DNA from: an uncultured Candidatus Saccharibacteria bacterium
Lineage (GTDB): Bacteria; Patescibacteriota; Minisyncoccia; Phycocordibacterales; CAYRGE01
Length of the DNA: 64,000 bases
Direction of reading: 5' to 3'
NCBI GenBank assembly: GCA_964612415.1
Contig: CAZTCT010000001.1
Coordinates: 71,955-135,954 of the forward strand
The notes under the pieces are model-generated. The model ran no database searches, was not told where the DNA came from, and worked only from the letters and a program-made list of their open reading frames with translations. Within the stretch, counting starts at the first letter, position 1. Each line of letters starts with the position of its first letter. This document shows positions 3,352-57,553 of this stretch, one piece after another. Both the position numbers and the translations under genes were made by a program.

Positions 3352-4461
3352 CTATGTACTTAATGGAGCAATAAGATAAAGAAAGGATGTGTCCCCAACA
3401 CCCTTTATAACAAGGGGTTTACCTTGCCCAGAAAAACCAAGGGTAACACTATCTTGTGGAATAACACCCAAACAATCAATAATGTGTTTTTGATTAAACC
3501 CTATTTCAATCGGTTCCCCCTCTAAAACAGCGTCTAGGATCGTTTCATTTCTCCCCACATCAGGATTTTCTGAGATTAAAGATACTTGCTTTTGTTTTGT
3601 TTGCGCCAAAAATAGCACTTTGTGAAATTTATCAGAAAATGCGTTGGCGATTTTAAGTGCGTTTAAAACATCGTTTTTTAGTGTTGTTACCTCTGTTGTG
3701 TTGGTTTTTGGGATTATTTGACGGTAGTCTGGGAAATTTCCACTTACAAGTCTTGATGAGATATGTGTGTTTTTAAAAATAAAAGATATTTGATTCTCGT
3801 TGTGGTAAACAAGAACATCTCCAGTCTCTTCGTCTGTTTCGCAAACTTTTATTATTTCCATTGCTGTTTTTAGGGGGAGAATTAAGGATGAAAACTCTTG
3901 GTTATTTTTTGTGAGAATTTTCTTCTCAGCAAGACGTACAGAATCTGTTGCCACAAACACCACTGTTTTGCCTTCAGGGTACATATAAACACTAGATATT
4001 TCTGGCTTTATATTTGATATTGCTGCACTAAAAACAACACTTTTAAGTCCGTTTAAAAGATTGTTTTTTTCTATTAAAATCTCGTTTTCTTTTGGTTTTT
4101 GAGGAAGGGTTGGAAAATCATCAACGGGGAAACATTTTATTACCGCTTTATTCCCCCCTCCTGTAAAAAGGATGTTTCCTTTTTCTTCCTCTATTGAGAC
4201 AATTTTTTGATCTTGGATTGTGGTGAGGATATTACTTAATACTTGTGGGAGAACTACAAAAGACCCATTTTTTTGTGTTTTTGTTTGAATTACTGACTCA
4301 AAACCTATTTCAAGATTTGTTGCTCTAATAGTAACTTTATTATTTTCAATTAAAAACAAAACTCCTTGTAGTGTTGGTAGTGTTGAATTTTTACCTCCCA
4401 AAAACCTCTCTGCTAGAGATAAAACTTTTTTTAATTTTTCTGAAAAGAATTCTATTTTCAT
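3352..4461 (-). CDS. dnaN: DNA polymerase III beta sliding clamp
   Basis: 369 aa, MKIEFFSEKLKKVLSLAERFLGGKNSTLPTLQGVLF..., three-domain length, located downstream of dnaA. Confidence 0.9.
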   Translation of the reverse strand: MKIEFFSEKLKKVLSLAERFLGGKNSTLPTLQGVLFLIENNKVTIRATNLEIGFESVIQTKTQKNGSFVVLPQVLSNILTTIQDQKIVSIEEEKGNILFTGGGNKAVIKCFPVDDFPTLPQKPKENEILIEKNNLLNGLKSVVFSAAISNIKPEISSVYMYPEGKTVVFVATDSVRLAEKKILTKNNQEFSSLILPLKTAMEIIKVCETDEETGDVLVYHNENQISFIFKNTHISSRLVSGNFPDYRQIIPKTNTTEVTTLKNDVLNALKIANAFSDKFHKVLFLAQTKQKQVSLISENPDVGRNETILDAVLEGEPIEIGFNQKHIIDCLGVIPQDSVTLGFSGQGKPLVIKGVGDTSFLYLIAPLST

Positions 4462-4709
4462 ATTAATAAATGTTTATATATTTCTATATATAAAATATTT
4501 ATTATTACTATTATATGTGTTAATAAGTTGAAAACTTAAAAAAACCTTTATTTTACTGATTAAAAAACTATTTTTAAAAAGAAGAAGTTGTGAATAATGT
4601 GTGAAATTAAATAAAAGATTGTGGATAAATATCTCTAAAAATATATCAGCAGTTTTTATAAACAAATTTTTCCACAACTTTTTCATAATAAAACACAGCT
4701 TATTAACAT
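4462..4709. other. putative oriC: AT-rich dnaA-dnaN spacer carrying a DnaA-box cluster
   Basis: The 248-bp spacer is very AT-rich. It holds one perfect DnaA box TGTGGATAA (4620..4628), TGTGAATAA (4589..4597, 1 mismatch) and TTTTCCACA (4668..4676, 1 mismatch on the opposite strand), with long A/T tracts typical of a DNA unwinding element (DUE). Confidence 0.6.
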
Positions 4710-6071
4710 TTAAAACATAGATTTAATCTTCTCGATTTCATGCGATAGACCAATGTCTTTTTTAATATCATTTTTTATCTTCTCACAAGAGTGTATTACT
4801 GTTGTGTGATCTCTTCCACCAAGTTTTTGTCCGATGGTAGGAAAAGAAACATTAAACTCCTCACGGAGAAGATACATAGCTATTTGACGGGGCTTTACCA
4901 CCTCCTTTCTTCGAGTTTTTTGGTAAATAGAATCCTCTTCAATATTGTAAAAATTTGCCACCATACGAACAATATCTTTAACAGACACGTTTTTCTGAGG
5001 CTGGACACTGTTCTTAATAAGCGATTTTACTTCAGGAATAGAAAGATCACGGTTTTTAAGTTGGGTTTGGCACATAACCACATTTAAAACACCCTCCAAT
5101 TCTCGTATGCTCCCCTCTACAGATGAAGCCAAAAAATCAACAATCTCGTCAGAAAGTATAAAGCCATTGGTCTGTGTTTTTGCTTTCAAGATAGAGAAAC
5201 GAGACTCGTAATCAGGTTGCGATATGTCAACGATCATTCCTGCGCCAAAACGAGAACGCAGACGGTCTTCTAGTGTGGGGATATAACTAGGGTGCCTATC
5301 AGAAGAAAATATTATTTGGCGGTTATTGTCGTAAAGTGTGTTAAATAAATGAAAAAGCTCTTCTTGAAACTTCTGTTTGTTTGCTAGAAATTGAATGTCA
5401 TCCATAATAAGGACGTCATACTTTCTGTATTTTTCTTTAAACTGGTTTACTTTCTGCGCCTGGAGTGAGTTGATGTAATCAACAGAGAATTTTTCAGACG
5501 TAATGTAGTAAACCTTTTTACCAGGGTATAAAGTCTTTATTTGATTTCCTACCGCCTGGATGAGGTGTGTTTTTCCTAAACCAGTACCACCGTATACAAA
5601 AAGAGGGTTGTATACTACCCCGGGCTTTTTAAGAATTGCTTGCGCAGCGGCATGAGCAAGTTCGTTGAAAGGCCCAATAATAAAAGAATCAAATGTATAT
5701 CGAGGGTTCAGATTATCCTCTTTGTTGATATAAAGGTCGTTTAAAGGGAGCTCGTTAAACTGCTGTATTGCCACACTCCTTCTTTCCTGCTCATGTCCTG
5801 ATGAGCCCGTGTGGTTTTCTTTGCAAACAATATATTCAACCCCCCTTATATACTCAGCTGATTCTCGGAGAGAACGTAAGATCACTTTGTGGTATTTATT
5901 CACCAACCACTCTTTCACAAACTCGTTAGGGACTCCAACATACACACACCCACTCTCTTGTTTAACAATATGTGTGTTTTTAAACCATGTACTGAAATTT
6001 GCTTTAGAAACCTGAGGCTCAATACCCGTTAGAACTGTTCCCCAAAGCTTTTCATTATTCACAAGAGACAT
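4710..6071 (-). CDS. dnaA: chromosomal replication initiator DnaA
   Basis: 453 aa, Walker A GGTGLGKTHL, AAA+ box VLIMDDIQFL, C-terminal DNA-binding helix-turn-helix (KLGGRDHTTVIHSCEKI). Confidence 0.95.
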   Translation of the reverse strand: MSLVNNEKLWGTVLTGIEPQVSKANFSTWFKNTHIVKQESGCVYVGVPNEFVKEWLVNKYHKVILRSLRESAEYIRGVEYIVCKENHTGSSGHEQERRSVAIQQFNELPLNDLYINKEDNLNPRYTFDSFIIGPFNELAHAAAQAILKKPGVVYNPLFVYGGTGLGKTHLIQAVGNQIKTLYPGKKVYYITSEKFSVDYINSLQAQKVNQFKEKYRKYDVLIMDDIQFLANKQKFQEELFHLFNTLYDNNRQIIFSSDRHPSYIPTLEDRLRSRFGAGMIVDISQPDYESRFSILKAKTQTNGFILSDEIVDFLASSVEGSIRELEGVLNVVMCQTQLKNRDLSIPEVKSLIKNSVQPQKNVSVKDIVRMVANFYNIEEDSIYQKTRRKEVVKPRQIAMYLLREEFNVSFPTIGQKLGGRDHTTVIHSCEKIKNDIKKDIGLSHEIEKIKSMF

Positions 6072-6299
6072 GATGGGTGACTGTGTAAGTGGTTACCATT
6101 ATATGCTTTTCTTAAGAAACACACAAAGTAACCTTATTTTTTGCGTAAAAACATTATATATCGTCTTAAAAACCATGGAACTTGTCAAAAAAGACTCATT
6201 GTGTTAATAAAGTGTTTATAACTTGTGGATTTCTGTAACGACCAACAGCCATTTTTACTGTAAGTTGAGGTTGTTTCAAAAACCACATATAATAAAACT

Positions 6300-6437
6300 A
6301 TGTCAACAACATACCAACCAAAAAAGAGGAAGCGAGCAAAGGCGCACGGGTTTCGATCCAGAACTAAAACAACCAACGGGAAAAAGGTTATTAAAGCAAG
6401 GCGTCACAAAGGAAGAAAGCGTCTAAGCACCGTCTAA
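6300..6437 (+). CDS. rpmH: 50S ribosomal protein L34
   Basis: Hand-translated 45 aa: [45 protein letters not shown] (canonical L34). Below the 60-aa cut-off of the ORF track. Confidence 0.85.
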
Positions 6438-6462
6438 GCGGGCTGGGCCGCTGCCCTTCCCT

Positions 6463-23833: not shown

Positions 23834-24874
23834 TTGTTTTTCGGAACACTTTTCATGCTTGTGCCGGTATCTAGTGCTAATGCTGGCTTTTTTACTTTCC
23901 TTGGGAGCATCTTTTTGGGCAATTCAACCAGCGCAGAGGAGAAGAGGATCAACTCTCAGAACATGGCGCTTCTTCAGGCGGCTGCCAACCCTGACCCCCA
24001 TGCTGCACAAGGGGGTGGTGACATTACTATCGTAAGTGACAGTGCCCTTCTCCCTGTTTCAGGCCCGGAAGGAACCCTTGCTGATATCGGGGATACACAA
24101 GGGGTGAAGGTGAAGAATGACCAGATCAGTGTCTATATTGTTCGCTCAAACGATACACTCTCGGATATTGCTAAGATGTTCGGGGTAACCGTCAATACGA
24201 TCCGTTGGGCAAACGATATAGGGACAAATGATGTCATCCGCGAGGGACAAACCCTAGTTATCCTTCCTGTGTCAGGTATTCGTCATACCGTAAAGTCAGG
24301 AGACACTCTTGCAAGTATTGCTTCTGCGTACAAGGCAGATAAGCAAGATATTATGGAGTTCAATGGGATTGAAGCCGGCGACTCTCTTACTGTAGGACAG
24401 GTTGTTGTTGTTCCCGACGGGCAGATGGCAATAAGCGTAACGCCAAAGTCTACCTCCTCATCAAGCAGCCAGTCATCAAGCACGGTACGCATCACTACTC
24501 CTTCATACGGTGACTATTACGCATACCCACTTCCTTCTGGAGCAGGAGTCGTGTCACAGGGATTGCACGGATATAACGCAGTTGACCTTGCTGCACCTCG
24601 CGGTACACCGGTCACTGCATCAGCGGGAGGAGAAGTGGTGGTTGCCAAATTTGCAGAAGGAGACCCATGGTTTGGCGGATACGGAAACTATATCGTCATC
24701 CAGCATGATAATGGTACGCAGACACTTTATGCTCACCTCTCTGGCGAGATCGTCAGCCGCGGGTGGAGTGTGGTGAAAGGACAGGTTATCGGATATGTAG
24801 GCGCGACAGGGCGTGCCACAGGAAGTCACCTTCACTTTGAAGTTCGTGGGGCCAAAAACCCATTTGGTATATAA
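23834..24874 (+). CDS. LysM-domain M23 family peptidoglycan endopeptidase
   Basis: LysM (YIVRSNDTLSDIAKMFGVTVNTIRWAN and a second LysM), then the M23 motif HDNGTQTLYAHLS...GATGRATGSHLHFEV. The track start at 23834 is a TTG; the first ATG is at 23855, so the start is uncertain. Confidence 0.85.
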   Translation: MFFGTLFMLVPVSSANAGFFTFLGSIFLGNSTSAEEKRINSQNMALLQAAANPDPHAAQGGGDITIVSDSALLPVSGPEGTLADIGDTQGVKVKNDQISVYIVRSNDTLSDIAKMFGVTVNTIRWANDIGTNDVIREGQTLVILPVSGIRHTVKSGDTLASIASAYKADKQDIMEFNGIEAGDSLTVGQVVVVPDGQMAISVTPKSTSSSSSQSSSTVRITTPSYGDYYAYPLPSGAGVVSQGLHGYNAVDLAAPRGTPVTASAGGEVVVAKFAEGDPWFGGYGNYIVIQHDNGTQTLYAHLSGEIVSRGWSVVKGQVIGYVGATGRATGSHLHFEVRGAKNPFGI

Positions 24875-24897
24875 ATCTCAAATGTACGAGGGAGGAA

Positions 24898-24933
24898 GAA
24901 AAACGGCTCAACCGATCGGTTGAGCCGTTTTTT
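24898..24933. terminator. bidirectional intrinsic terminator, 34-nt perfect palindrome AAAAACGGCTCAACCGA|TCGGTTGAGCCGTTTTT
   Basis: Lies between the convergent M23 gene and comM. The identical hairpin recurs at 35778..35811. Confidence 0.7.
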
Positions 24934-26461
24934 AGCTTGAAAAGAGGTGTTGTGGGCGGTACTGGAGAGCTTCTAAAATATGCTCCTGCGCGATTTCCTC
25001 TGAGCCATCAAGGTCTGCAATAGTGCGAGCAACTTTTATAATTCGGTGGTAGGCGCGTGGAGAAAGCCCCATCTTTTCTGCAGAGGATACGAGAATATTC
25101 TTTGCATCTGAAGATAGAGACGCCAAGGCATCTATCTCCCTTGGCTTCATTTGCGCATTTCGCGTTGTGCCATTCGCAAATCTTTTTTCTTGTATTGCTC
25201 GTGCTGACAGAACGCGGTCGCGTACCGCGGCGCTGCCTTCTCCGTCTGGGGCACGAGAAAGTTTTTCGTGTGGAATTGAGGGTACGTGAACCCAGATATC
25301 AATACGGTCCACAATCGGCCCCGAGATTTTACGCTGGTATTTTAATAATGTTCCTTGCGGGCACACACATGTCTTATTTGTTCCATAGTTCCCACATGGG
25401 CAGGGATTGAGTGCGGCGATGAGGGTGAAGCGAGAGGGGAAAATATCCGTTCCTTTTGAACGCGAGATGCTTACGGAGCCATCTTCAAGAGGTTGACGAA
25501 GTGATTCAATGACGCGACGGTCAAACTCTGGAAATTCATCAAGAAACAGGACACCAAAATGAGCCAAGGTAACTTCTCCTGGTTTTGGATGAGTGCCTCC
25601 TCCAATAATTGATACGTACGATGAAGTATGGTGTGGGGCGCGGAAAGGAGGATGCCGCACAATAAACTTTTTTAAAATTCCTGCCTGTGAATGTATGCCA
25701 GTGACTTCAAGTGATTCTTCCATAGAAAGAGGAGGAAGAATCCCAGACAACGCTTTTGCAAGCATTGTCTTACCTGTTCCTGGCGGGCCGTAGAGCGCGA
25801 CGTTGTGCCCTCCTGCAGCTGCAATCTCGAGTGCGCGTTTGGCAGTTTCTTGTCCTCGTATTTCTTTTAAATCAAAATCTGGTGTTTCAAAAGCATCATC
25901 TGTTAATGTTGGCGTAGCTTCTCTTGGAAGAGAAAAAGATGATTGAGAAGAAAGATGATCAATGAGTTCGTTGAGGGTTTTCACTCCGAATACACTCAAC
26001 CCGTCTATGAGCGCTGCTTCTGGCGCGTTTTCTTTTGGCACATATATTTCTTTAAATCCCTTCTCTTTTGCTTTTTGCGCAAACAAAAGAACCCCGAGCG
26101 CAGGGCGCAGTGTCCCATCAAGGGCGAGCTCTCCTAAAAATATTTTGTCATCCAAAGTCGCGGCGAGAATTCCCTGGGCCTTCAGATACCCAAGAGCAAT
26201 CGGGAGGTCAAAGAGTGCGCCTTCCTTTTTAATATTTGCTGGGGCCAAAGACACAACCACTTTTTGGTTACTGTGTTTGGGAGATTTAAATCCAGAATTT
26301 TTTATTGCAGAACCAACGCGATCGCGCGCCTCTTCAACTGCTTTATCTGGGAGCCCCACCACTATAAAAGAATGTAGACCTCCAGAGAGGTCTACTTCAA
26401 CAGAAACTATGTGTGGTGTAAGCCCGCTTACCTGTGCTGAATGGACGCGAGCGAAAGCCAT
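24932..26461 (-). CDS. comM: ComM/YifB-family Mg-chelatase-like AAA+ protein
   Basis: 509 aa, N-terminal Lon-like domain, Walker A GPPGTGKTMLAK, Walker B FLDEFPEF, C-terminal MgChelatase C domain. Confidence 0.85.
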   Translation of the reverse strand: MAFARVHSAQVSGLTPHIVSVEVDLSGGLHSFIVVGLPDKAVEEARDRVGSAIKNSGFKSPKHSNQKVVVSLAPANIKKEGALFDLPIALGYLKAQGILAATLDDKIFLGELALDGTLRPALGVLLFAQKAKEKGFKEIYVPKENAPEAALIDGLSVFGVKTLNELIDHLSSQSSFSLPREATPTLTDDAFETPDFDLKEIRGQETAKRALEIAAAGGHNVALYGPPGTGKTMLAKALSGILPPLSMEESLEVTGIHSQAGILKKFIVRHPPFRAPHHTSSYVSIIGGGTHPKPGEVTLAHFGVLFLDEFPEFDRRVIESLRQPLEDGSVSISRSKGTDIFPSRFTLIAALNPCPCGNYGTNKTCVCPQGTLLKYQRKISGPIVDRIDIWVHVPSIPHEKLSRAPDGEGSAAVRDRVLSARAIQEKRFANGTTRNAQMKPREIDALASLSSDAKNILVSSAEKMGLSPRAYHRIIKVARTIADLDGSEEIAQEHILEALQYRPQHLFSS

Positions 26462-31125: not shown

Positions 31126-31176
31126 ATGAGTCTAATATACAAAACAACCCGTTTATTATTCCGGCTAGTGAGAATG

Positions 31177-34783: not shown

Positions 34784-35572
34784 ATGAAAATCGTTTCATG
34801 GAACGTAAATGGCCTTCGTGCAGTACATAAACGCGGGGATTTCATGAAATTCATCAAGAAGACGAAGCCAGACATCTTCTGTCTGCAAGAGATTAAAGCA
34901 GAAGACCACCAACTCCCTGATGAAATACGTGCTTTGTCCGGATACCACGCCTACTTCTCCTCCTCGCAAGGTAAAAAAGGATACAGTGGGGTAGCGCTCT
35001 ACACGAAAACAGAACCCGATGAAGTAATAAAGGGCATTGGCATTCCCCGCTTTGATCAGGAGGGGCGCATTGTGGGAGCTGTATTCGGGAATGTGGTGGT
35101 GCTCAATATCTACTTCCCCAATGGCGGAGGTGGTCCAGAGAGGCTCGCGTACAAGCTTGATTTCTACGATGCCTTTTTGGAATACATAGAGGACTTGCGC
35201 TCCAAAAACAAAAAAATCATCTTCTGCGGTGATGTCAATACAGCCCATGAGGCGATAGATCTTGCCCGTCCTAAAGAGAACGAAGAGAACACGGGGTTTC
35301 TCCCAGAGGAGCGCGCGTGGATAGATGAGGTTGTTTCACGGGGGTATATAGACATATTCAGGAAGCTTTATCCTAGCAAGGAGGGGGCCTATACGTATTG
35401 GGATATCAAGACGGCTGCCCGAGAGAGAAATGTAGGGTGGAGGATTGATTACTTTTTCATAGACCCCCGGGTGGCCCCCGCTGTGCAGAAAACAGGCATT
35501 CTATCGGACATATACGGCTCAGACCACTGTCCTATAGAGCTTGTCCTTGACGAGCAAAAGTTGCACATGTAA
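34784..35572 (+). CDS. xth: exodeoxyribonuclease III (AP endonuclease, Xth family)
   Basis: 262 aa, MKIVSWNVNGLRA...DIFCLQEIKA...GDVNTAHEAIDL...YTYWD...SDHCPI. Confidence 0.9.
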   Translation: MKIVSWNVNGLRAVHKRGDFMKFIKKTKPDIFCLQEIKAEDHQLPDEIRALSGYHAYFSSSQGKKGYSGVALYTKTEPDEVIKGIGIPRFDQEGRIVGAVFGNVVVLNIYFPNGGGGPERLAYKLDFYDAFLEYIEDLRSKNKKIIFCGDVNTAHEAIDLARPKENEENTGFLPEERAWIDEVVSRGYIDIFRKLYPSKEGAYTYWDIKTAARERNVGWRIDYFFIDPRVAPAVQKTGILSDIYGSDHCPIELVLDEQKLHM

Positions 35573-35685
35573 CACAAAATAGCTCGTCAAGACCTTGTAC
35601 CCCCCCTAAGGGAGTATTTTGGCACAAATGTTACATGTGTAACGATTACTCTAGTGCCCCGAGGCATGTCTTTATCGGGGGTAAT

Positions 35686-35822
35686 TGTTCCACGTGAAAC
35701 GTTTCACTCCTAGGCAGGACGCCAAAAAACCCTTATTTCTAGGCATTTCATAAATTCGAAATGTATGAGGTAGTAAGAAAAACGGCTCAACCGATCGGTT
35801 GAGCCGTTTTTGTGGTCCATGC
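35686..35822. repeat. intergenic module copy 1: CACGTG/GTGAAAC-GTTTCAC box, conserved 40-nt AGGCATTTCATAAATTYGAAATGTAYGAGG block, 34-nt palindromic terminator
   Basis: Box at 35691..35707, conserved block at 35740..35775, micro-ORF MYEVVRKTAQPIG at 35761..35802, palindrome at 35778..35811 (identical to 24898..24933). Confidence 0.7.
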
Positions 35823-36112
35823 CCCCAATCCTCGTGTTGTAGGGTTTTGTAGGTCGCCAAAACGAGGCTCGGCTACTGCTACTTAAAAAGTTTTCACGTG
35901 AAACGTTTTTGAGGCAGATTACGTAAAATTTTTTGATTGGTAGATTGGCATGAAGTGCCACACCCCCTGGGGACCCATCCTTTTGCACCGTTTCTTGAAT
36001 TTTGGAAATCCTGTCAAACAGACAGTACCCCTAGGGGGAGGCAAAATGTTAGTTTCCAATAAACGAGGGGGTATAGTCATTTTGTGGGCTTTCTACCGAG
36101 CGGACCTCTCCG

Positions 36113-36262
36113 CGAAACTGTTTCACATGTAACTTTTTATGGGGGTGGTCCCTTGATCTGGCATATACGCCCAAAAACCTATATTTTTCAGGCATTTCAT
36201 AAATTTGAAATGTACGAGGTGGTTAAAAAAGCGGGTCAATCATATGATTGACCCGCTTTTAT
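36113..36262. repeat. intergenic module copy 2, diverged paralog of 35686..35822
   Basis: GTTTCACATGTAAC box at 36120..36133, block AGGCATTTCATAAATTTGAAATGTACGAGG at 36190..36219, micro-ORF MYEVVKKAGQSYD at 36210..36251. The 36-nt perfect palindrome at 36225..36260 differs from copy 1 only by paired (compensatory) substitutions. Confidence 0.7.
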
Positions 36263-36345
36263 GCCACACCCCCTTATACTCTTGGCCTACTCCCATGGTA
36301 GTGTCTAGAGGTGAAACAGGATAAAATGTTTCACGTGAAAGGTTT

Positions 36346-56890: not shown

Positions 56891-56999
56891 ACATTAAAAA
56901 TGTTACTAAGGTGTCAAAATGTTACACATATGGAGTCGAGTACTCCTTTTTTGATTATACTCCATATAAACCCAAGAGGTATTTCTTTGAGGGGAAAAC

Positions 57000-57025
57000 A
57001 AAAAAACGGCCTAGGCCGTTTTTTT
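57000..57025. terminator. palindromic terminator AAAAAAACGGCC-TAG-GCCGTTTTTTT overlapping the ppa stop codon
   Basis: Perfect palindrome with A-run and T-run arms. Confidence 0.6.
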
Positions 57026-57553
57026 GTTACCGTATGAGTCTTGGTAAAGTTTAATCCCTCTTTTTACTGCTTCGTGCGCCGCTTTCTTTCCTTCAAATCC
57101 ATTTACTTCAACCTCTTTGTTCTGCAGTTTCTTGTATGTTGAGTAGAAATGTTCAATTTCCTTAAGCGTATGCTTGTTTATATCGGCAAGGTCTTTCACA
57201 TCACTCCATCTAGGATCATCTTTTGGAACAGCTATAACTTTGTCGTCTGCATCCCCGCCATCAATCATTCTCATGATTGCAACAGGGCGGGCATGTACCA
57301 AAATACCAGGGGCAAGTGGGTATGTGGTGAGGAGTACTACATCGATCGGGTCTTTGTCATCCCAGAGTGTCTGGGGGATAAATCCATAATCAAAAGGGAA
57401 GTCTTGTGCCGTGTGCGCGACGCGGTCAAGAGCGATAAGGCCCGTCTCTTTGTCTATCTCGTACTTATTTTTGGATCCCTTGGGGATTTCGATGATTGTA
57501 TTTACCACGTCTGGGAGCTCGTCTCCCGGGGTGATTTCATGCCACAAGTTCAT
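57011..57553 (-). CDS. ppa: inorganic pyrophosphatase (family I)
   Basis: 180 aa, DPIDVVLL...DGGDADDKVIAV signature. Confidence 0.9.
   Translation of the reverse strand: MNLWHEITPGDELPDVVNTIIEIPKGSKNKYEIDKETGLIALDRVAHTAQDFPFDYGFIPQTLWDDKDPIDVVLLTTYPLAPGILVHARPVAIMRMIDGGDADDKVIAVPKDDPRWSDVKDLADINKHTLKEIEHFYSTYKKLQNKEVEVNGFEGKKAAHEAVKRGIKLYQDSYGNKKTA

Follow-up and report, generated by a model that had tools for sequence, protein, structure and literature searches.

A locally duplicated family of predicted bidirectional terminators with a conserved leader block in an uncultured Patescibacteria genome

The stretch of DNA analysed here, called the window throughout (64 kb; all coordinates refer to it), carries a short palindromic repeat at the ends of several genes. 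To judge by its encoded proteins, the host genome is that of a small candidate-phyla-radiation bacterium of the Paceibacterota (Patescibacteria). The best matches of its exodeoxyribonuclease III (ExoIII), CCA-adding enzyme and LysM/M23 peptidase are Patescibacteria/Paceibacterota MAGs, and proteins identical to these three are found on a 205,701-nt NCBI contig. The organism is plentiful in samples such as ERR15459717, SRR15237813 and SRR33902050. The repeat copies, named w1 to w4, are bordered by the following genes:

23834-24874, plus strand: LysM/M23 peptidase gene, the 3' end of which runs into w1
24932-26461, minus strand: gene of a comM-type Mg-chelatase-like ATPase, convergent on w1
34784-35572, plus strand: exodeoxyribonuclease III gene (exoIII), upstream of w2
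36346-37818, minus strand: CCA-adding enzyme gene (cca), convergent on w3

The M23 peptidase (plus) and comM (minus) genes converge on a 57-nt gap that w1 occupies, w2 and w3 share a 773-nt non-coding gap between the convergent exoIII (plus) and cca (minus) genes, and w4 lies in a 560-nt gap between a tRNA-Gly gene and a UPF0102 gene. The C-terminus of the M23 peptidase, ...HLHFEVRGAKNPF, is native to its family. Several genes of the window have a -10-like box 6-9 nt before the ATG and no Shine-Dalgarno (SD) sequence, which suggests that leaderless mRNAs may be frequent in this genome:

34765-34786: exoIII start, TACAAT, 6 nt, ATG, no SD
38741-38763: UPF0102 gene start, TAGAAT, 9 nt, ATG, no SD
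31126-31150: pnp start, TATATT, 8 nt, ATG, no SD

The repeat is built around a perfect palindrome of 34 nt, AAAAACGGCTCAACCGATCGGTTGAGCCGTTTTT, which occurs identically in w1 and w2 and has no match in 100 shuffles. A preliminary description had reported this identity, and it holds, with the first copy at 24899-24932 rather than 24898..24933. The same description had noticed a variant with compensated changes in both arms and a fourth motif in reverse orientation, both of which are present. The variant, w3, carries the perfect 34-nt palindrome AAAAGCGGGTCAATCATATGATTGACCCGCTTTT, which departs from that of w2 at three positions in the arm, with a compensating change opposite each. The motif AATGTAYGARG precedes the hairpin in all four copies and occurs exactly four times in the window, on the plus strand at 24881, 35760 and 36209 and on the minus strand at 38603-38613; with one mismatch allowed, there are nine matches against 3.6 expected. 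The view that these are not random terminators but a duplicated, terminator-embedded element is borne out, and the repeat, at 93 nt (24843-24935, 35722-35814 and 36171-36263), is longer than had been stated. The individual copies are laid out as follows:

24864-24934, plus strand: w1; last M23 codons and stop, motif AAATGTACGAGG (24880-24891), 11-nt spacer, palindrome at 24899-24932
35722-35814, plus strand: w2; block CGCCAAAAAACCCTTATTTCT, AU-rich hairpin GCATTTCA-N-GAAATGT, spacer, palindrome at 35778-35811
36171-36263, plus strand: w3; the same block and motif (36209-36219), palindrome at 36227-36260
38582-38633 (about), minus strand: w4; degenerate, inverted copy with motif AAATGTACGAAG (38603-38613)

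In w1 the T-tract overlaps the comM stop codon (24932-24934), and in w2 the motif (35760-35770) lies inside the AU-rich hairpin. The motif of w4 is the 3' arm of a 12-bp AU-rich hairpin, and downstream of it stands only a weak AAAAGAC-CT-GTCTTTT hairpin. Folding energies and covariance-model scores are -30.2 kcal/mol (z -6.2) and 84 bits for w1, -28.9 kcal/mol (z -5.6) and 94 bits for w2, -31.5 kcal/mol (z -7.5) and 92 bits for w3, and -9.3 kcal/mol (z -3.6) and 18.7 bits (E 0.04) for w4. Run over the 64-kb window with filters off, the covariance model of the unit returns these four copies, one weak generic terminator and no further copy; none is present either in the flanking sequence covered by Logan contigs of the same organism, 6.6 kb on the left side and 8 kb on the right. 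Of the ~79 kb inspected, a single 13.7-kb stretch contains the whole family, three copies in full and a decayed fourth, and by the preliminary description's own yardstick the lack of more distant copies in these ~79 kb makes it a local duplication. The Logan short-read contigs L001, L002, L099, L100 and L101 end at palindromes (window 24915, 35803, 36231 and 56999). Such contigs stop at every perfect palindrome, also at a unique one at 56997-57028, and we rejected their ends as evidence of repeat number because they fall at unique palindromes too. Two relatives provide orthologous copies: contig L003 (85% ExoIII protein identity) carries a w2 orthologue, ...TGTAAATTTGAAATGTATGATACGACCGAATAAACGGCTCAACCGTGCGATTGAGCCGTTT, and contig L098 (M23 identity of 96% in protein and 85.6% in nucleotides) a w1 orthologue, ...AAATCTCAAATGTACGAGGAAGGAAGGGAAAAAGGGTCAACCGTACGGTTGACCCTT.

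Both large gaps, between exoIII and cca and between tRNA-Gly and the UPF0102 gene, are filled with GTTTCACGTGAAAC boxes. The chromosomal parS consensus is TGTTNCACGTGAAACA (PMC7022226), and 11 of the 14 matches to it in the window fall within 35560-38711, the best with 15 of 16 positions; four weaker boxes lie inside the cca gene. The cluster is ~30 kb from dnaA, and these predicted sites resemble chromosomal parS both in their match to TGTTNCACGTGAAACA and in their clustering near the origin. The proteins scanned included no ParB. The strongest boxes and the modules that they bound are:

35686-35701, 35890-35905, 36327-36342 and 38697-38712: best parS boxes
35683-35908, plus strand: module copy 1; parS, w2 unit, parS
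36116-36345, plus strand: module copy 2; parS-like box, w3 unit, parS, ending at the cca stop codon

Because rpmH, dnaA and dnaN are found at 3.3-6.4 kb, the copies can be placed in origin-proximal, parS-rich DNA. The genes rpmH (plus), dnaA (4710-6071, minus) and dnaN (3352-4461, minus) form a classical origin locus at window 3352-6440, with TGTGGATAA-like DnaA boxes in the spacer 4462-4709 (33% GC). The cumulative GC-skew minimum of the window falls near 34-38 kb despite this origin locus, and a perfect DnaA box, TGTGGATAA, is found at 38556-38564 in the non-coding gap beside w4, far from dnaA. C-rich palindromes, CCCCCTNNAGGGGG, are interleaved with the parS boxes at 35601, 35972, 36029, 38405 and 38518, one of them conserved in L003 at about 1140. 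A G+C-rich repeat of ~120 nt that contains the hairpin CGCGAGCCGGGGTCGCG flanks tRNA-Gly(GCC), at 38012-38041 versus 38281-38310, with a wider extent of about 37985-38125 versus 38255-38400.

Copies w2 and w3 are a tandem duplication of a module of ~226 nt bounded by parS-consensus sites; the two modules align locally with a score of 128, whereas 300 shuffles gave at most 39. Copy w1 is a dispersed copy and w4 a decayed, inverted one. In the closest relative (JGI 3300056388; identities of 77% for exoIII, 84% for cca and 78% for M23) the spacer between exoIII and cca is 341 nt, which leaves room for only one module, and that between M23 and comM measures 69 nt. Copies w1 and w2 differ at 0 of 34 positions within the palindrome and at 6 of 28 before it (hypergeometric p ~0.006). 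L098, the w1 orthologue, carries a different hairpin, and L003, the w2 orthologue, keeps the w2 arms. From the identical palindromes behind divergent leaders, together with the different hairpin of L098, we infer gene conversion of w1 by w2 or an equivalent form of concerted evolution. At its left end, GCCAAAAACCCATTT, w1 codes for AKNPF, the C-terminus native to the M23 family, and the resemblance of this end to the same place in w2 and w3 reaches the M23 coding end (p ~0.01), which hints that the module and the M23 3' end may share ancestry. As this resemblance is only modestly significant, copying between w1 and w2/w3 may have gone in either direction.

What might the copies do? The element is probably a small local family of paralogous non-coding modules, the active part of which would be a palindromic, bidirectional Rho-independent terminator. 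In w1, w2 and w3 the hairpin consists of an A5 tract, a G+C-rich arm of 10-11 bp, a 4-nt centre and a T-tract, with 4-6 T after the stem on the plus strand and 5-6 on the minus strand. Such a stable G+C-rich stem-loop (-28.9 to -31.5 kcal/mol, z -5.6 to -7.5) with a U-tract directly after it, placed just past a stop codon where a transcription unit ends, is what an intrinsic terminator looks like: w1 stands 24 nt past the M23 stop codon, w2, 205 nt beyond the exoIII stop codon, is the first strong terminator to follow this gene, and w3 is the first terminator that minus-strand cca transcripts meet (85 nt past the cca stop codon). The stem has also been kept in evolution. Across w1, w2, w3, L003 and L098, 98% of the cells are paired and 4 of the 15 stem pairs have changed on both sides yet still pair, a level of pairing reached by only 3 of 500 shuffles. 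The design is not peculiar to the repeat, as gene ends in the window carry 13 perfect hairpins of 10 bp or more; because 6 of these 13 are palindromic through the centre, an A-tract, a palindrome and a T-tract appear to be the normal terminator design of this genome. The six start at 24899, 35778, 36227, 50133, 55667 and 56997, and their centres resemble restriction sites (GATC, GATC, CATATG, CTAG, AATATT and CCTAGG). They suggest either a genome-wide habit of symmetric terminators or correction of palindromes by template switching.

RNA made from either strand would fold the same 15-bp hairpin followed by a U-tract, so that one element could stop both convergent transcription units. We infer termination at the T-tracts of w1, w2 and w3: w1 would serve the M23 peptidase gene on the plus strand and comM on the minus strand, w2 would stop exoIII transcripts on the plus strand and w3 those of cca on the minus strand, and w2 and w3 together would shield the ~415-nt stretch with the central parS-type sites. 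Bidirectional intrinsic terminators between convergent genes have been described in E. coli and B. subtilis. The present predicted terminators are like them in being symmetric and G+C-rich, in having an A-tract and a T-tract, in lying between or after convergent genes and in reading as terminators on both strands. They are unlike them in that there are three paralogous copies with a common upstream block of ~50 nt, in that the palindromes are perfect through the loop and in that two copies bracket parS-type sites.

The preliminary description had read a different function into the same hairpins, namely a conserved 13-aa MYE micro-ORF that the palindrome always encloses and that might be a micro-peptide or part of an attenuator. 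The three 13-codon translations are as it gave them (MYEGGRKTAQPIG, MYEVVRKTAQPIG and MYEVVKKAGQSYD in w1, w2 and w3), each frame ends at the hairpin TGA, and the distance from ATG to palindrome centre is 34 nt in all three; the enclosure holds for these window copies and fails in both orthologues available for comparison, so that the frame is kept in 0 of 2. L003 retains the 34 nt from ATG to centre as well as the ATG-to-TTGA length, but an in-frame TAA at codon 7 reduces the product to MYDTTE*. L098 has the identical motif, but one extra nucleotide in its spacer makes TTGA read as TTG-ACC, which puts the hairpin TGA out of frame and leaves the frame open to the contig end. The ATG of w4 opens a spurious frame of 182 codons antisense to tRNA-Gly. 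The ATG-to-TGA distance is fixed only within the host genome and one relative. The final six or seven residues of the peptide are a translation of the hairpin arm, the TGA itself belongs to the TTGA of a conserved TCAA/TTGA arm pair, and conservation within the unit is lowest in codons 3-7. The window copies do offer a weak hint of coding: w2 and w3 differ at three third codon positions within MYEVV, and the variable sites in the first four codons of w2, w3 and w4 are three, all at third positions (~1 in 27 by chance). This bias vanishes once w1, L098 and L003 are added. No SD sequence is present in the 20 nt upstream of the ATG. A leaderless start might be considered in a genome where many genes look leaderless, and TAAATT is found 4 nt before the ATG, compared with 6-9 nt in the apparent leaderless genes. 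The GAGG inside the motif, proposed as an alternative Shine-Dalgarno element, is lost in L003 and is followed by no start codon at a usable distance. Upstream small ORFs ending at the TAA of CATAAAT were also considered and rejected, as they have no start codon and are not conserved. Like leader-peptide attenuators of the trpL, hisL and pheL type, the unit has a very short ORF that ends in or next to a terminator hairpin; unlike them, it has no alternative antiterminator, no regulatory codon run and an ORF that its orthologues do not conserve. Downstream of both w1, itself confined to its 57-nt gap between convergent genes, and w3, the next gene is on the opposite strand, and w2 is followed by non-coding DNA and then w3. 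Because no copy has a co-oriented gene downstream, an attenuator is excluded, and a 13-aa peptide or leader, perhaps begun at a leaderless ATG and translated into the hairpin so as to modulate termination, strikes us as extremely improbable. From these comparisons, the 13-codon MYE frame is best regarded as incidental, its ATG supplied by the conserved non-coding motif AAATGTAYGA and its TGA by the hairpin arm.

The preliminary description had also called the element mobile or duplicated. Duplication is evident from the 93-nt family and the ~226-nt module, and mobility is not supported. Identical 34-nt palindromes 10.9 kb apart with different right flanks would be accounted for by a mobile palindrome of REP/BIME or MITE type that moves through the genome and inserts at gene ends. 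Homology between copies, however, extends well past the palindrome and takes in parS sites, fading gradually on the left and ending at the T-tract on the right, and the flanks of w1, w2 and w3 show neither terminal inverted repeats nor target-site duplications of the MITE kind. REP sequences are imperfect palindromes with a conserved GTAG-type head, present in hundreds of copies and linked to a RAYT transposase, in enterobacteria and pseudomonads. The present element is like REP/BIME as a reused extragenic palindrome at gene 3' ends that could act on 3'-UTR stability or termination, and unlike it in having perfect palindromes, A/T-tract flanks and only three to four copies in the ~79 kb covered, confined to 13.7 kb. 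No transposase or RAYT (IS200/IS605-like) gene was found among 20 window proteins scanned or among the Pfam labels of the flanking loci, and a Xer-type recombinase was the only such gene nearby. In Neisseria and Haemophilus, inverted pairs of DNA uptake sequences act as terminators. As there, one short sequence forms both arms of gene-end hairpins, and comM and competence-type genes are present in the host genome. Single arms are not over-represented here, in contrast to uptake sequences: the arm GGCTCAACCG with at most one mismatch has 6 matches against 3.1 expected, the four exact ones being the hairpin arms themselves, and on this ground the uptake-sequence idea was rejected.

Searches in other collections bear on the same question. 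The exact palindrome core has 0 matches in 185,579 species genomes, and the module has none in phage and plasmid collections. In JGI metagenomes, four contigs of 33-38% GC from one sample (Ga0209211) reuse AAACGGCTCAACCGTACGGTTGAGCCGTTT at gene ends, each with its own extra palindromic flanks, which could be taken to favour mobility:

L025, 1821-1844: AAACGGCTCAACCGTACGGTTGAGCCGTTT in Ga0209211
L026, 3782-3805: AAACGGCTCAACCGTACGGTTGAGCCGTTT in Ga0209211
L028, 1204-1227: AAACGGCTCAACCGTACGGTTGAGCCGTTT in Ga0209211
L029, 52-75: AAACGGCTCAACCGTACGGTTGAGCCGTTT in Ga0209211

This is an unrelated organism with an identical 30-nt palindrome at four gene ends, and in 3 of the 4 copies the palindrome continues into the flanks for a further 3-9 bp that differ from copy to copy, as though the core had come to lie within hairpins that already existed. 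The copies lack the motif, and the same 24-nt pattern also occurs in two unrelated JGI contigs of 68-69% GC, which are chance matches; we therefore do not count AAACGGCTCAACCGTACGGTTGAGCCGTTT of Ga0209211 as a sign of homology. Because the palindrome has only ~11 free positions, the common core is possibly coincidental. With so few copies in the ~79 kb inspected, all of them local, we give the mobile reading hardly any credence. The 19-nt motif has 66 single matches in the 185,579 species genomes, many of them in Bacteroidota and none in genomes listed as Patescibacteria. Among 20 motif matches in viral contigs, none has the hairpin or the upstream block, and most look like AT-rich coding sequence. 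Rfam returned only tRNAs and noise at gathering and at permissive thresholds. In relatives at ~70% identity the element is absent though synteny is kept. One of these, L004 (70% ExoIII identity), has a G+C-rich, structured non-coding stretch with its own terminator in the exoIII-cca gap (5860-6160) and an extra gene of 261 aa with no Pfam match in the same gap (L004:6163-6948).

What, then, preserves the sequence in front of the hairpin? A plain terminator would not explain the invariance of AAATGTAYGA in six copies and orthologues or the conservation of the ~50-nt block upstream. Between the window and L003 the 49-nt block CGCYAAAAAASCCTTATTTCT...TAAATTYGAAATGTATGA is 82% identical, against 52% for exoIII third codon positions, and the 11-nt spacer between motif and hairpin is scrambled; by this comparison the block is under constraint above the neutral level. 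The invariant AAATGTAYGA is the 3' arm of an AU-rich hairpin (hairpin 1) that folds stably in w2, w3 and w4 (z -3.3 to -3.6). In L003 the 5' arm of this hairpin carries four transitions that keep pairing only as G-U on the plus strand. Our preferred guess is that the block acts at the RNA level as a 3'-end module, with an AU-rich hairpin whose 3' arm is AAAUGUAY followed by the terminator. Its conservation, hairpin 1 and the promoter-like boxes described below allow a small RNA or a 3'-UTR module.

The fuller version of the RNA reading makes the unit a small-RNA gene of ~65-70 nt or a 3'-UTR-derived RNA, composed of a weak promoter, an AU-rich 5' hairpin, a single-stranded spacer and the terminator, which would be the 3' end both of the small RNA and of the neighbouring mRNAs. 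We regard this as unlikely. A weak promoter-like element, YWGGMA-N16/17-TWTATT, does lie at the same place just upstream in four copies (TAGGCA..TTATTT in w2, CTGGCA-16-TATATT in w3, CTGGAA..TTATTT in L003 and CAGGTA-17-TATAAA in w4), and the block conservation, the stability of hairpin 1 and the G-U-only changes of L003 fit an RNA. On the other side, TTATTT, the -10 candidate of w2 and L003, is without the key A at position 2, w1 contains nothing promoter-like, hairpin 1 is supported in 3 of 6 copies but misses significance in w1, L098 and L003, no Rfam family matches, and the copies are paralogous, so that their common layout may simply be inherited. The unit resembles terminator-sharing or 3'-UTR-derived small RNAs in its order of 5' hairpin, spacer and intrinsic terminator, and in having one copy in a 3' UTR and others free-standing in intergenic DNA. 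It differs in its weak promoter-like boxes and in its spacer, the place of the would-be single-stranded seed, which is its least conserved segment. A site acting at the DNA level, where the motif or block would be bound by a parS/ParB-linked protein or would form a minus-strand promoter (TTGAsC-19 nt-TACATT), appears very unlikely. A parS-consensus box is found 60-90 nt from each of w2, w3, w4 and L003, TACATT (the reverse complement of AATGTA) is invariant, TTGA is conserved in the arm, and the 19-nt gap, constant in four copies, would also explain the constant ATG-to-TGA distance. But w1 has no parS nearby, a spacer of 19-20 nt (20 in L098) is poor for sigma-70-type promoters, a promoter there would drive only antisense or non-coding transcripts at w1, w2 and w3, and the G-U-only changes in L003 favour RNA on the plus strand. 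Two further candidates were discarded: a dif/Xer site (7-bp inverted arms, 6-nt centre), which is at odds with several copies in either orientation and with the missing left arm of L003, and a plus-strand sigma-70 promoter directly at the motif, for which there is no acceptable -35.

A more far-reaching proposal is that the ~95-nt unit is a lineage-specific family of small-RNA genes, with a weak promoter, an AAAUGUAYGA hairpin and the palindrome as terminator, coupled to origin-proximal parS. We consider this quite unlikely. If it were true, 'parS - sRNA/terminator - parS' would work as a unit, perhaps to insulate a ParB loading region or to tune it, and the M23 peptidase mRNA would have taken over one copy as its 3' UTR.

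In conclusion, the repeat is real and, as far as its sequence tells, of an ordinary kind: a bidirectional intrinsic terminator that has been duplicated locally and partly homogenised, together with a co-duplicated leader block. This removes a false candidate for a micro-peptide or attenuator and provides an example of how a conserved-looking short ORF can arise when a start codon in a non-coding motif and a TGA in a hairpin arm are held at fixed spacing. In this uncultured Patescibacteria genome, intrinsic terminators are predicted to be typically perfect, bidirectional palindromes, and such perfect-palindrome terminators can be locally duplicated and homogenised; beside the parS sites they leave a short conserved non-coding block.
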